A DNA stretch of 64,000 bases, from the NCBI GenBank assembly GCA_018819225.1, contig JAHJQN010000008.1, positions 128,001 to 192,000 on the forward strand, read 5' to 3'. The translations under genes were made by a program, and so were the position numbers. Below, piece after piece: positions 14,014 to 19,475 of this stretch. The notes beneath the pieces were generated by a model, which was not told the origin of the DNA, did no database searches, and saw only the letters and a program-made list of their open reading frames with translations. Position 1 is the stretch's first letter, and the number at the start of each line of letters is the position of its first letter. The DNA comes from Candidatus Micrarchaeota archaeon (lineage in GTDB: Archaea > Micrarchaeota > Micrarchaeia > Norongarragalinales > SBBD01).

Positions 14014-15303
14014 ATGAAACTTGCAGAACTGCCCTTGAAGCCCCCGCTTCTCCGGGCGATAAACGAACTCGGCCTCGTGGACGCCACGGACATTCAAACC
14101 CAGTGCATTCCGGAAATCATGACCGGAAACGATTTGGTGGGCCACTCGCGCACGGGATCCGGTAAAACCGCTGCCTTCGGACTACCCATCCTCGATAAAA
14201 TTGAACCCGGAAAAGGCGTTCAAGCGCTCATTCTCACGCCCACCCGCGAGCTATGCGTCCAAGTCGCCGAATCCTTGAGCGATTACTCGAAGTTCATGCG
14301 AATCCGCATTGCCAGCGTGTACGGAGGCGTCAGCATCAACCCGCAAATCGATGCCGTCAAGCACGCCGACATCATCGTAGGAACCACGGGAAGAATCCTC
14401 GATCACATCGACCGACGAACCATTGATTTTCGAAATACTCGGTTCCTGGTTCTCGATGAAGCCGATCGCATGCTCGACATGGGATTCATTGAAGATGTTG
14501 AGGCGATCATGGGCGTGATTCCGAGCAAACGACAAACCCTACTCTTTAGCGCGACCATGCCAGGCAGCATCTACCACTTGATCAAAGAACATCTCCGATA
14601 TCCGGTCACGATCACGGGAGAAGTATACGTCGACAAACGCTTGTTGCGCCAAGTCTACTACGACGTCGAACCAGAAGAAAAGTTTTCACTCCTCGTCCAC
14701 TTACTCAAAAAACACTTGAAAGGATTGTCCCTCATTTTTTGTGCGACCCGACGCGAAGTCGATACGGTCACGCGAAACCTGAAAGAAAACGGTTTGAACA
14801 CGCTCGCCATTCACGGAGGACTCACGCAATCCAGACGCACGAATGCATTGAACGCGCTAAAAAAAGAACGTATAAGCATTCTCGTGGCAACTGACGTGGC
14901 CGCCAGAGGACTCGACATTCGATCCGTCTCCCACGTATACAATTACGATGTACCGGGTTCTCCGGAAGAATACTTGCATCGCGTGGGCCGAACCGCACGC
15001 GCCGGAGACGAAGGCGATGCAGTAACCCTCGTAACCTACCGCGACTTTCAGAATTTCAGGGCCGTCACAAGCGATCGCACCCTGGAAATCATCAAACTCG
15101 AAAAACCGCTTTTCGAACGCGTGCGCTTTCAACGACACTCCGGACAACGCGGAGGCGGACGACGACCCTTTTCAGGCAGGCCGCGACCGCATCACCGAGA
15201 CGGCGGATCCAACCACCGACCCGAACGCTGGGGAGGAGGCGGAAGACGATTCCACCCCCGTCAACAACAACCAAGCTACCGCGGACACGGAAGACGACGC
15301 TAA
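14014..15303 (+). CDS. DEAD-box RNA helicase
   Basis: TGSGKT, PTREL, DEAD, SAT, ARGLD and HRVGRTAR motifs, with an RG-rich tail. Confidence 0.96.
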   Translation: MKLAELPLKPPLLRAINELGLVDATDIQTQCIPEIMTGNDLVGHSRTGSGKTAAFGLPILDKIEPGKGVQALILTPTRELCVQVAESLSDYSKFMRIRIASVYGGVSINPQIDAVKHADIIVGTTGRILDHIDRRTIDFRNTRFLVLDEADRMLDMGFIEDVEAIMGVIPSKRQTLLFSATMPGSIYHLIKEHLRYPVTITGEVYVDKRLLRQVYYDVEPEEKFSLLVHLLKKHLKGLSLIFCATRREVDTVTRNLKENGLNTLAIHGGLTQSRRTNALNALKKERISILVATDVAARGLDIRSVSHVYNYDVPGSPEEYLHRVGRTARAGDEGDAVTLVTYRDFQNFRAVTSDRTLEIIKLEKPLFERVRFQRHSGQRGGGRRPFSGRPRPHHRDGGSNHRPERWGGGGRRFHPRQQQPSYRGHGRRR

Positions 15304-15363: not shown

Positions 15364-16449
15364 ATGCCGAGAAAAAGCGCTAGAGGAAGTCCGCGAAACC
15401 AACGCGTACAGGTTCAAACCGCGGAAGCGTCCGACAGCCACCAAGCGAAGACCTCCGCTAAACCCAAAGGCTTCAAACCCATCAAACAAATCAAGAGCAC
15501 GGAAGAAATAGCCATATCCGATAAACTCATCGACCAAGTCGTGGGACAAGAGCGCGGCATCGAAATCATCCGAAAAGCCTCGAAACAGAAACGAAACGTG
15601 CTTCTCGTTGGAACACCCGGCACCGGCAAAAGCATGCTCGCCCAAGCCATGGCCGAACTCATGCCCATCGAGGATCTGCAGGACATCATGATTATAGCCA
15701 ACCGCGACAACGAAAACCAGCCGAAAGTCCGAATCGTGAAAGCCGGAGAAGGAAAGAAAATCATCGCCAAAGAAAAAATCAGCGGACGGCTCGCCGGCTC
15801 TCACACCAACCTCTTTCTCATCGCGTTCATGATCTTCTCCGTGTTCATTGCCCTGTATTTCCTGCCCAACTACTTCGATACCGTCATCGTAGCGGCCATG
15901 CTCATCGGACTCTTCCTCATGGGAGCCGCCATGATGTTCGCCATGCAATTGTCGCGAGGGCGCCTCGTGGAAGCCGATACCGCTAAACTGGCTGTGGATA
16001 ACGGCAAAATGAAGAAAGCCCCGTTTGTCGATGCGACGGGATCACGGGCGGGCGCATTGCTAGGAGACGTGAAACACGATCCGTTCCAAAGCCTGCCCCC
16101 TGAGCAAACATTGACGGGCACATCACAGCGCATCAACATGGAAAGCGCATGGTTTGAAATGGCTGCCAAATACCCCAATCGAATCGAAAAACGATCCAAC
16201 GGATATGAAGCCATTCGCCTACCCCGAAAAGAAAAAGTGTACGTGCTCGGAATGAAGAACGGGCGAACGGTTAAAAGCCGAGTCTGGTCCTTGAACCGTC
16301 GGCGCTATAAAGGAAAAATCAGCGAAATCAAAACCAGGGGACGACGCGTACGGACCACACCCGAACACGCCTTCCTCCTTGCAGGAAAAGACGCACCCGC
16401 ACGAACGCTCAAGAAAGGGGAGTGGCTGCAATCACTTAACGAGAGCTAA
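15364..16449 (+). CDS. lonB: LonB ATP-dependent protease N-terminal fragment fused to an N-terminal intein half
   Basis: LIDQVVGQE, Walker A GTPGTGKS, two TM helices and APFVDATG..AGALLGDVKHDPFQ, followed by intein sequence. Walker B and the protease domain are absent. Confidence 0.88.
   Translation: MPRKSARGSPRNQRVQVQTAEASDSHQAKTSAKPKGFKPIKQIKSTEEIAISDKLIDQVVGQERGIEIIRKASKQKRNVLLVGTPGTGKSMLAQAMAELMPIEDLQDIMIIANRDNENQPKVRIVKAGEGKKIIAKEKISGRLAGSHTNLFLIAFMIFSVFIALYFLPNYFDTVIVAAMLIGLFLMGAAMMFAMQLSRGRLVEADTAKLAVDNGKMKKAPFVDATGSRAGALLGDVKHDPFQSLPPEQTLTGTSQRINMESAWFEMAAKYPNRIEKRSNGYEAIRLPRKEKVYVLGMKNGRTVKSRVWSLNRRRYKGKISEIKTRGRRVRTTPEHAFLLAGKDAPARTLKKGEWLQSLNES
16090..16446 (+). mobile_element. 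Intein N-terminal splicing fragment (IntN, 119 aa)
   Basis: Block A-like SLPPEQTL directly after DPFQ, then YKGKISEIKT, block B RTTPEH.FL and A..LKKGEWL, then stop. No blocks F/G (HN). Confidence 0.82.
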
Positions 16450-16838
16450 TTGATTTTCGTCAACAGTTTGCGGCCCATAGCCACCATATACTGGATCTCC
16501 TTGCCCACTTCCACTTCAGACCTCATTTCCTCGGGAATCTCCACTTCGAACGTCTCGTAATCCTGCATGTCCATGAGCTGAGCCGACGTACCCGACAAGC
16601 TCACGACTTGCGCCCGCTTTCTCGCAATCATCGGTATCTCGATATCCCCATCCGAAGGCTTCGCCAACGAACGCTTGACTCCATCAAATATCCCAATGGC
16701 CACGACATTCATCTTCGCGGCCCCGTGTTTTCCGGGCTTGCTCTTGTCAATACTGACGACCCGACACGGAAAATCTTCAATTAAAACATACTTGCCAATC
16801 TTCAAGTCGCCCATGGTTGCGTAAATGCGATCCACCAT
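16446..16838 (-). CDS. eif5a: Translation factor aIF5A/eIF5A
   Basis: Hypusination motif SKPGKHGAAK, and QLMDMQDYETFE. Confidence 0.96.
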   Translation of the reverse strand: MVDRIYATMGDLKIGKYVLIEDFPCRVVSIDKSKPGKHGAAKMNVVAIGIFDGVKRSLAKPSDGDIEIPMIARKRAQVVSLSGTSAQLMDMQDYETFEVEIPEEMRSEVEVGKEIQYMVAMGRKLLTKIN

Positions 16839-16898: not shown

Positions 16899-18602
16899 TT
16901 ATAAACGCGAAACCGGTGGCCGAGAAGACCAATACAGGGCTCCGCCCACCATCAACAAAACCGAGACAAAGGCCATTACAGAAAAATTCCCTGAACGGGA
17001 ACCTGCCACCTTCACGCTGATTTCATTAATGGATTGTTTCACTTTTCCAAGTAAAGACGAAGCGTCTTCATCCCGTTTCCGAGCCAGCAATAATCGAACG
17101 CGCGCGAGCTCCGCTTCCTCTTCCGTCGTGTCTTCACCGGCTTCCTCCAGACGCCGCAATTTTTCCTCCAAATCCTCGAGTTCATCGGAACCGCTCACGG
17201 GAGTAAAAGAAGGCGTCGGCGTCAACGAAATCGAAGGCTCCACCGTAATGGACGGCATACTCGACGGAACATCCGTGGGCGACGGAGAAATCGCTGGAGA
17301 GGGGGTCGCATTTGAACCGGGATACGGATCCGGCGAGGGAGTGGGAGTGGCACTCACGGAAGGCGTAGGAGAAATCGAAGGAGTGGGAGAAATGCTGGGG
17401 GTCGGTGAAGGCGTCGGAGTGGGAGACGGAGTCGGCGTGGGTTGAGCCACATCATTAAACGCGTATACGTAGCCGTCAGTCGCCGCAACGAAAAGCGTGC
17501 CATCGGCCACCACCATCCCGCTCATATGACACGGCAAATTGTAATGCCAAAAAAACGCGCCCGTGTCGGGATTCATCGCGTACACGGCGTCGTATGCACA
17601 CGCATACAAGACATCATTGCCCGATAATACCAGGCGTCCCCGATAACCCCCTCCACCGGTTTGCCACCATTTTTGTCCTGAGCCCGCATCAAACGACCAA
17701 ACCAGGCTCTGCTGCGCCTGCGTGGGAATGAAGACACGGTCATTCGCGTTATCAACGGTTACTGGACCCGGCGCATTCGATGACATCGAGAGCAAGTACG
17801 TCCAAGCCCTCGAACCGTTTTGCGGAAAAAACGCGTTCATTCGCCGACCCGCGTAACCGGATGCATCCGGAACAAAAAACATATTGTAGGATGAGCCAAA
17901 CGAAGCGGGTTTGATGGGGTAAATCGTAATCGAACTCCACAACGGGTTCCCGGTTTCCGCATCGAACCCGTGCAAACGATACTGCGGAGAGGAAATAAGC
18001 GTGGTCACCACTCCGCCCCCCACCGCGGGAGGATAGTCTTTAGTATAGCGGTTAACCGGCGTCTCCCATTCCACCACGCCATTTTCAGCATTGACACGAA
18101 CCAACGCCGCCGTATCCTCCCCCGTACGTCGCACTAAAAACAGTTTCGGAGACGAAAAAGCCGTCGAGTACGTCAGACCAAACGATTCCCCCACATCCGG
18201 AATGCGCCACAATTCATCCCGAGACGGAATATGATACGCGAATAAATCCCCGTTATTGACGTACAACGTGTCTCCAACGAGCACGGGATACTGCCAGCCC
18301 GACATTTCAGCCAGCTCCGTCACATTGTCCAACCATTCGCCCGTCTCGGCATCCAACAATGTGTAATTCGAATCCGCCACGTTTTCGTAACTCGGAACCA
18401 ACAAGCGACCATTCGAATACAGCAGTTGAACGTGCTCCGGCAAACCTTCCGCCACCTTCGTTCTCCACAACAATGAGTCCGTCAATGGCCCGTCATCCGG
18501 CGTAAACCCCGAATGATGTTCATCAAAGCCGTACTGAATCCAATCCGTCGATTGGGACAAGGAAAAGAAACAGACGAACGCGACGAGCCAAAAGAACGTC
18601 AT
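16899..18602 (-). CDS. PQQ/BamB-like beta-propeller surface protein with Pro/Thr/Ser linker and C-terminal TM
   Basis: Signal peptide MTFFWLV.., DW.QYG.D..HSG, repeated D..TG...W motifs, PTPS linker and TM. The start is reassigned from the ORF-track position 19259. Confidence 0.82.
   Translation of the reverse strand: MTFFWLVAFVCFFSLSQSTDWIQYGFDEHHSGFTPDDGPLTDSLLWRTKVAEGLPEHVQLLYSNGRLLVPSYENVADSNYTLLDAETGEWLDNVTELAEMSGWQYPVLVGDTLYVNNGDLFAYHIPSRDELWRIPDVGESFGLTYSTAFSSPKLFLVRRTGEDTAALVRVNAENGVVEWETPVNRYTKDYPPAVGGGVVTTLISSPQYRLHGFDAETGNPLWSSITIYPIKPASFGSSYNMFFVPDASGYAGRRMNAFFPQNGSRAWTYLLSMSSNAPGPVTVDNANDRVFIPTQAQQSLVWSFDAGSGQKWWQTGGGGYRGRLVLSGNDVLYACAYDAVYAMNPDTGAFFWHYNLPCHMSGMVVADGTLFVAATDGYVYAFNDVAQPTPTPSPTPTPSPTPSISPTPSISPTPSVSATPTPSPDPYPGSNATPSPAISPSPTDVPSSMPSITVEPSISLTPTPSFTPVSGSDELEDLEEKLRRLEEAGEDTTEEEAELARVRLLLARKRDEDASSLLGKVKQSINEISVKVAGSRSGNFSVMAFVSVLLMVGGALYWSSRPPVSRL
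17200..17445 (-). repeat. Low-complexity (PTPS/SISPTP)n linker
   Basis: Translates as PTPTPSPTPTPSPTPSISPTPSISPTPSVSATPTPSP... Confidence 0.8.
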
Positions 18603-18668
18603 GCTCCCATTAGAGAAACGCGCTATAAAAACGTATGGAAATAAAAAGACGCAGAACAAAAAAAAATC

Positions 18669-19475
18669 ATGGAACTCTTCTTTTTGGGAAGTGGCGGAGG
18701 CCGCGTGGTCGTCGATAGGCAAGTACTCGCCACCGGCGGTTTTCGAATACACGGAAAAGAAATCGCGCTCCACGTGGACCCGGGCCCGGGCGCCCTCGTA
18801 AAAACCTATCAACATCACTTGGACCCCGCCAAGCTGAATGGAATATTTGTCAGCCACGCCCATATCGATCACTGCAACGATGCCTCCATACTCGTAGAGG
18901 CCATGGCATTCGGATCCTTCAAGAAAAAAAAAGGAATGCTGCTCGCCAGCCAAAGCGTGCTGAAAGGAATCAACGGATTCGAAAAACAAATCGACGATTA
19001 CTTCCAAAACATGTGCGAAGGCGTTCACGTCCTTCAACCCGGAGTGCCCGTCGCGTATTCGCCGCGCATCCGCATCCGAGCGCTTCGAACCCAACACGAA
19101 GATCCGAGTGCCGTTGGTTTGGAAGTGGAAGCCGAAGGAATGCGAATCGCCTACACGGGAGACACCGAGATTTTCGACGGATTGAGCCAGCAATTGAATG
19201 GCGCTGATTTTCTGGTGATCAACTGCCTCCGGCCCGGAAACGATCGGTTCCCCTATCATTTAAGCATTCAAGAAGTCGCCGACATATTGAAATCCCTTAC
19301 GAAAAAACCGAAAGCCGTCTTCCTCACCCACGCCGGCATGAAACTCGTTCAAGCCGGCCGCGAAGAGCAACGCCAATGGCTGGAAAAGGAAACGAACGTT
19401 CGAATCATTAACGCCGTGGAAGGCTTGAACGTCTCGTTAAACGAATTGGCGTCCCGACAACAAAAACTCGTTTAA
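18669..19475 (+). CDS. MBL-fold metallo-hydrolase
   Basis: FLGSGG, VDPGPG, SHAHIDH, YTGDT and LTH motifs. Confidence 0.9.
   Translation: MELFFLGSGGGRVVVDRQVLATGGFRIHGKEIALHVDPGPGALVKTYQHHLDPAKLNGIFVSHAHIDHCNDASILVEAMAFGSFKKKKGMLLASQSVLKGINGFEKQIDDYFQNMCEGVHVLQPGVPVAYSPRIRIRALRTQHEDPSAVGLEVEAEGMRIAYTGDTEIFDGLSQQLNGADFLVINCLRPGNDRFPYHLSIQEVADILKSLTKKPKAVFLTHAGMKLVQAGREEQRQWLEKETNVRIINAVEGLNVSLNELASRQQKLV

Follow-up and report, generated by a model that had tools for sequence, protein, structure and literature searches.

The LonB gene at the locus

We analysed a 64,000-nucleotide stretch of a Candidatus Micrarchaeota archaeon contig (JAHJQN010000008.1, positions 128,001 to 192,000), referred to below as the window, and examined a forward-strand gene that encodes the N-terminal part of the membrane-anchored protease LonB fused to the N-terminal half of an intein (IntN). 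The open reading frame (ORF; P0001) occupies 15364..16449, including the stop codon, and its 361-residue translation matched both the NCBIfam LonB model TIGR00764 (model positions 4-202 against residues 43-249, E 2.4e-57, 194.9 bits) and the intein N-terminal model TIGR01445. The LonB portion, or N-extein, comprises residues 1-242 (15364..16089), ends in ...GDVKHDPFQ, and could be aligned to residues 28-218 of the contiguous LonB 4zpx_A (E 1.2e-50) up to HDPFQS. It contains the Walker A motif (P-loop) GTPGTGKS at residues 83-90 (15610..15633), with AAA-type Pfam matches at residues 57-111, and a membrane hairpin (15811..15945) composed of hydrophobic helices at residues 150-167 and 174-194. 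Kyte-Doolittle means for these helices, calculated over a 19-residue window, reached 2.56, and the hairpin aligns with the hydrophobic insert of the solved LonB 4zpx_A.

The HDPFQ sequence lies at residues 238-242, and the intein starts directly after it with Ser243 (base 16090), which is position 1 of the intein. IntN (16090..16446) was delimited by TIGR01445, which scored 29.9 bits against a cut-off of 24.5, and by alignment with 13 split relatives and the cis mini-intein of the related genome G034. It extends for 119 residues to ...LKKGEWLQSLNES, where a stop codon follows. The Pfam model Intein_splicing scored 25.2 bits, under its cut-off of 35.8, as expected because only half of the domain is present. 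Intein block B, TTPEH, which provides the Thr and His of the TxxH motif, was located at residues 331-335 (16354..16368) by motif position and in a 16-sequence alignment. The nearest solved sequence to IntN was the Mja KlbA intein 2jmz (E 8e-4).

The gene is bounded by a convergent eIF5A gene of 130 residues (16446..16838, minus strand; IF5A-like_N match 3.4e-17), which lies outside the system. The TAA stop codon of the LonB gene at 16447-16449 overlaps the eIF5A stop codon at 16446-16448, the two ORFs share 4 bp, and the convergent gene therefore leaves no room for the LonB frame to continue. No Lon protease domain was found inside the window, as all Lon_C matches obtained from the genome assembly lay outside it. 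These observations confirm the initial annotation of the window, which had described a LonB N-terminal part running through Walker A and the hairpin to HDPFQ, an intein from 16090 that stops 119 residues later, a 4-bp stop overlap with eIF5A, and the lack of a protease domain in the window.

The partner gene and the fit of the two halves

The initial annotation had also predicted that a second gene elsewhere would encode the C-terminal intein half (IntC) with a terminal (H)N and, after it, SGG, the remaining AAA+ portion, and the protease domain. Such a gene was recovered when the assembly (8 contigs, 1.37 Mb, ~90% complete) was searched with Lon_C. The LonB C-half, of 459 residues, is encoded on the minus strand at G000:C7:52695-54074 (L001:1435-2814) and matched TIGR00764 and the intein C-terminal model TIGR01443. 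It lies on the same contig as the window gene but on the opposite strand, 89,290 bp distant. Its first 41 residues constitute IntC, which reads ...ANGILMHN (ending ...VYNATTSTGNYFANGILMHN) and is followed by SGGLGTPAH; TIGR01443 scored 18.8 bits on this region (cut-off 15.6). The remainder matched TIGR00764 positions 194-607 with 664 bits, such that the equivalog cut-off of 516.6 bits was exceeded by the C-half alone but not by the N-half, and Pfam identified LonB_AAA-LID and Lon_C. The C-half carries Walker B (VLFIDE, residues 65-70) and the Ser-Lys protease catalytic motifs GDSAS (residues 344-348) and GGVTQK (residues 384-389). All the hallmarks of LonB, namely Walker A, the transmembrane hairpin, Walker B, LID, and the S16 Ser-Lys protease domain, were thus found, divided between two genes.

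The exteins are exactly complementary. The C-extein aligns with 4zpx onward from Q217-S218, and the two exteins meet at Q217|S218, so that removal of the intein halves leaves neither gap nor overlap. The predicted ligated LonB has 660 residues, and the intein-less LonB proteins of relatives have 630-720. The nearest solved intein to IntC was NEQ528, the IntC of Nanoarchaeum PolB (E 0.087), with ...LYDLSTESGKFYVNGLVLHN|T aligned to ...VYNATTSTGNYFANGILMHN|S. Neither IntN nor IntC contains cysteine. The C-half has its own ATG, and the DNA upstream of it differs from that of the N-half; a TTTATAAA box and an AAGGTG stretch precede the ATG and, read by eye, may represent archaeal promoter and ribosome-binding signals. 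A scan for bacterial-type promoters and terminators, which does not reach archaeal promoters, returned nothing above shuffled expectation. Both half-genes open with MPRK (15364-15375 in the window and L001:2803-2814 on the minus strand), which is probably a coincidence.

A genome-wide census with intein models revealed three cis inteins together with a single IntN and a single IntC that were not paired. All three cis inteins are on another contig, in ORFs of great length: a 1657-residue frame holds two and a 1392-residue frame holds one (G000:C5:93023-95824, plus strand; G000:C5:11209-12564, minus strand). The TIGR00764 search of the ~90% complete assembly found no intact lonB, only the two halves and a paralog with the AAA module alone. 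This LonB-like AAA+ paralog (487 residues; G000:C5:80993-82366, plus strand) has neither membrane hairpin nor protease domain. Nearly all of the order's 41 genomes had a listed match to this paralog, which in three members of family f11 sits ~2 kb upstream of the LonB N-half.

We modelled the complex of the two intein halves using residues 236-361 of the N-half and residues 1-60 of the C-half, alongside three controls. The model of the IntN-IntC pair scored 0.83, a mark reached by 51 of 78 solved complexes and by 2 of 108 mismatched pairs, whereas the best of the three controls scored 0.00. Contact agreement between runs was at least 86%, and the predicted local distance difference test (pLDDT) value of the partner was at least 67. 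The model supports pairing of the halves without demonstrating binding, and its favourable score may stem in part from resemblance to solved split-intein complexes.

Other genes adjoin this locus. Directly upstream of the LonB N-half is a DEAD-box helicase (14014-15303, plus strand; DEAD 3.2e-52, Helicase_C 9.1e-32) with a C-terminal tail of ~70 residues rich in Arg, Gly, His, and Pro. A 786-residue ORF at 16899-19259 on the minus strand has a repeat-rich middle, a linker rich in Pro, Thr, and Ser (...PTPTPSPTPTPSPTPS...), a short charged helix, and a C-terminal hydrophobic anchor, and from these features looks like a surface protein.

Conservation across relatives and origin of the split

Both halves were searched for in 41 genomes of the order; the initial annotation had proposed looking for the same split in related genomes. 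Split LonB was present in 17 of the 41: all 11 genomes of the window's family and six in two other families. In two fragmented assemblies of the window's family, the N-half alone was recovered. No split LonB was detected outside the order in a 141-genome sample of the phylum, where, apart from a few large cis inteins, the genes carried no intein. In the split genomes, IntN extends 111-138 residues past the junction, with one read-through to 163, and IntC is ~36-45 residues long. Intein position 1 is Ser in 15 of 16 split relatives and Thr in the other; T130, E132, and H133 of block B are invariant in the 16-sequence alignment; and the terminal Asn of IntC and the Ser at +1 are present in all 14 relatives. 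The penultimate His is replaced in three relatives (LVSN in G008 and G036, LVRN in G001), whereas the window genome keeps HN. In at least 11 independently assembled genomes of the family, the LonB N-half is convergent with eIF5A, and the genes flanking the C-half are common to three genera.

A word-indexed protein search with the IntN region retrieved a single relative; this method was too insensitive and was replaced by a profile of the junction and IntN, searched against 1.84 billion protein cluster representatives. Approximately 32 representatives stop 97-177 residues past the DPxQ junction and carry Ser1 or Cys1, although truncated gene calls may be among them. Among named relatives, the nearest were a Candidatus Micrarchaeota metagenome-assembled genome and one from an unclassified archaeon.

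Several arrangements of the same intein were found within the order. Cis inteins occupy the DPxQ|SGG site of LonB in the relatives G021, G030, and G034. That of G021 is a homologous intein of 497 residues with an endonuclease domain, Thr1, TPEH, and an IntC-like end, and that of G034 is a mini-intein of 161 residues that aligns straight over the split point. In G020, the two halves are neighbours on the same strand, separated by a 344-residue ORF (L015:380-1414, plus strand). In G039, the gap between the halves holds a 70-residue remnant of the G020 gap ORF (E 9e-10), and in G031 the halves of one copy are adjacent. In the window's family, the halves are far apart or on different contigs. The G039 gap also contains, beside the remnant, a Cys-rich ORF of 124 residues (L039:1064-1438, minus strand) with an N-terminal hydrophobic segment and no Pfam match.

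The G020 gap ORF and the internal domain of the G021 intein share 35% identity (E 2e-51). We call the ORF an endonuclease because of this homology; LAGLIDADG-like motifs recognized by eye (IFGTLYGDGG and FLDGFLACEVG) point the same way. It matched no Pfam family even at E 10 and nothing among PDB sequences, and its single-sequence fold model was unusable (mean pLDDT 31.9). Taken together, the sequences suggest a likely series that leads from a cis intein with an endonuclease to a fractured gene with a free-standing endonuclease, and then through decay of the endonuclease to dispersal of the halves.

In a tree of the C-exteins, the window's family formed one clade in which all members are split (9/9; support 100/99), and the split state was patchy elsewhere. 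The split G039 was nested among intein-less alleles of its own genus (support 99/97). This patchiness and the position of G039 suggest that gains or losses have continued. A single origin of the split was considered and is not supported, as the tree needs at least two changes forced by well-supported branches and only the family clade is clean. The nesting of G039 gives a hint that the fractured LonB intein (IntN and a stop, a free-standing endonuclease, and a start and IntC) might still be mobile in the order, invading intein-less lonB genes and later losing its endonuclease and dispersing. We regard this as a speculative and rather improbable scenario; if it were true, a single gene family would document every stage through which split inteins come into being.

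Proposed trans-splicing and comparison with known systems

Two exactly complementary genes, catalytic residues that have been conserved, retention of the split in relatives, and the intermediate forms lead us to a reading that we hold with high confidence: the window gene encodes the N-terminal part of a naturally split LonB whose parts associate in the cell and are joined by class 1 trans-splicing. The only membrane Lon found in this genome is encoded by two genes, each with one intein half, and the enzyme is very probably stitched together after translation. The window gene would yield a membrane-anchored fragment comprising the N-terminus, Walker A, and the transmembrane hairpin, which returns the chain to the cytosolic face, and ending in IntN. 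The C-half gene would yield a soluble fragment in which IntC is followed by the remainder of the AAA+ module (Walker B and LID) and by the Ser-Lys protease domain. IntN and IntC would associate into one HINT fold, an N-O acyl shift would occur at Ser243, and the resulting ester would be attacked by Ser42 of the C-half, the +1 residue. Asn41 of the C-half would then cyclise, releasing the intein, and an O-N shift would produce a seamless 660-residue LonB with the junction ...HDPFQ|SGGLGTPAH.... The expected tryptic junction peptide of the spliced protein is HDPFQSGGLGTPAHLR. These proposed steps follow established intein chemistry (review PMC4031507). Because the split separates Walker A from Walker B, ATPase-protease activity is expected of neither fragment by itself and should depend on ligation. 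As a speculation weaker still than mobility of the fractured intein, ligation of the soluble half onto the membrane-anchored half might act as a checkpoint in LonB assembly; the post-translational control point suggested in the initial annotation is likewise speculative.

Several points weigh against this proposal. Both intein halves are basic: IntN contains 27 Lys+Arg against 11 Asp+Glu (net charge +16, pI 10.85), and IntC has a pI of 10.42. They are in this respect unlike the DnaE pair, whose opposite charges drive fast assembly. The net charge of IntN is +14 to +18 across the family, and IntN is acidic (-8 and -3) in two genomes of another family. In block F, the Asp found in Neq PolB IntC (LYD) is Asn (VYN) here and in all 14 relatives. 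Median ratios of nonsynonymous to synonymous substitution (dN/dS) were 0.38 for IntN, 0.28 for IntC, and 0.13-0.15 for the exteins, with frames open, but these values are rough since synonymous sites are saturated in most pairs. Finally, an intact lonB could strictly still lie in the missing ~10% of the genome, yet none was found in any of the 11 family genomes.

One alternative is that the intein halves act merely as a dimerisation module that holds the LonB fragments together non-covalently, with no peptide bond formed. The predicted association of the halves would suit such a role, as would the replaced penultimate His in G008, G036, and G001 and the Asn that stands in place of the block F Asp throughout. 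However, Ser/Thr1, the Thr and His of block B, the terminal Asn, and Ser+1 are retained in every copy across families despite saturated synonymous sites, which would not be expected if the chemistry were dispensable, and the window genome itself retains the penultimate His. Furthermore, an unspliced complex would hold 160 foreign residues within the AAA+ alpha/beta core, between Walker A and Walker B. We therefore consider this alternative unlikely. Less likely still is that an intein-bearing lonB was broken by rearrangement and that both fragments are non-functional, decaying remnants. The break does fall within an essential module, and gene loss is known from the reduced genomes of DPANN-type archaea, but throughout the 11 family genomes, as well as in two other families, both fragments are intact ORFs, and the dN/dS estimates, rough as they are, also argue against decay (0.13-0.15 for the exteins, 0.28-0.38 for the intein). 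In addition, no replacement LonB was found in the ~90% complete genome, and the C-half alone reaches 664 bits against the LonB model. The initial annotation had raised the prospect of an intact lonB elsewhere beside an unconserved copy here; instead, no intact gene was found, and the copy is conserved and not decaying.

The same annotation had allowed for a misassembly at the junction. In such an assembly or binning artefact, the real gene would be contiguous, and the contig would be a chimera in which a truncated lonB has been fused to eIF5A. This is a metagenome-type assembly in 8 contigs, a setting in which such an artefact can be envisaged. Against this, a stop 111-138 residues past the junction and the convergent eIF5A gene recur in at least 11 independently assembled relatives, the C-half has its own ATG and different upstream DNA that includes the TTTATAAA box, the flanks of the C-half are alike in three genera, and the ~32 cluster representatives in the library of 1.84 billion proteins stop at the same point. 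The recurrent synteny at eIF5A and around the C-half makes misassembly very unlikely, and we give the artefact the least credence of all the explanations considered. Judged by these sequence features, LonB has a real, conserved, naturally split intein of the class 1 HINT type, for which we infer splicing.

To our knowledge, natural split inteins have been described almost only in DNA replication and repair enzymes (DnaE, Nanoarchaeum PolB, and fractured genes of phages and metagenomes), and our literature searches agree. In the literature searched, no split Lon or LonB intein was described, only contiguous LonB inteins, consistent with the remark in the initial annotation that no split Lon was known. 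Novikova et al. (2016) listed ten LonB inteins, all from Euryarchaeota, and split inteins for PolIII-alpha only (PMC4760082), and Dassa et al. (2009) reported fractured genes in eight DNA synthesis and repair enzymes only (PMC2677866). The contiguous LonB inteins of Euryarchaeota share the host protein with the system described here but splice in cis from a single gene, in contrast to the two genes here.

The closest parallel in genomic setting is the PolB split intein of Nanoarchaeum equitans (NEQ068/NEQ528; PDB 5oxx, 5oxz), which is likewise archaeal and naturally split, occurs in a reduced DPANN-type genome, and has halves encoded far apart. In place of Cys, its first nucleophile carries a hydroxyl group, as does Ser1 of the LonB intein, and the IntC motifs are similar. 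The systems differ in that the LonB host is a membrane-anchored AAA+ protease rather than a replicative polymerase, that the +1 residue is Ser in LonB and Thr in Neq PolB, and that block F has Asn instead of Asp; the sequence similarity is marginal. The LonB split family, moreover, occurs in numerous genomes, with relatives in cis and fractured form. The cyanobacterial DnaE split inteins (Ssp/Npu) have halves of similar size to those of LonB (IntN ~120 residues, IntC ~36-41 residues) but use Cys1 and Cys+1 and pair an acidic IntN with a basic IntC, whereas the LonB nucleophiles are both Ser and the halves are cysteine-free and both basic. The DnaE genes are also far apart on opposite strands, and their intein is split at the endonuclease insertion point and conserved clade-wide (PMC4760082). 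The fractured genes of Dassa et al. (gp41-1, NrdJ-1, IMPDH-1, and related; PMC2677866) share the same proposed route to splitting. In contrast to those genes, the window genome has its halves on opposite strands, separated by 89 kb and without an endonuclease; the fractured arrangement, absent from the window genome, was observed in G020 and as a remnant in G039. A further difference is that the endonuclease of these relatives stems from the intein's own internal domain and belongs to no Pfam family.

As a naturally split, cysteine-free pair with Ser1 and Ser+1, the LonB intein is a candidate redox-insensitive, orthogonal ligation tool. A single order holds cis, mini cis, fractured with endonuclease, fractured with decayed endonuclease, and dispersed forms, which makes the origin of split inteins testable by comparison. 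If splicing takes place as proposed, the occurrence of a split intein in the sole membrane AAA+ protease of an archaeal family would mean that trans-splicing can be fixed in an enzyme of protein quality control.

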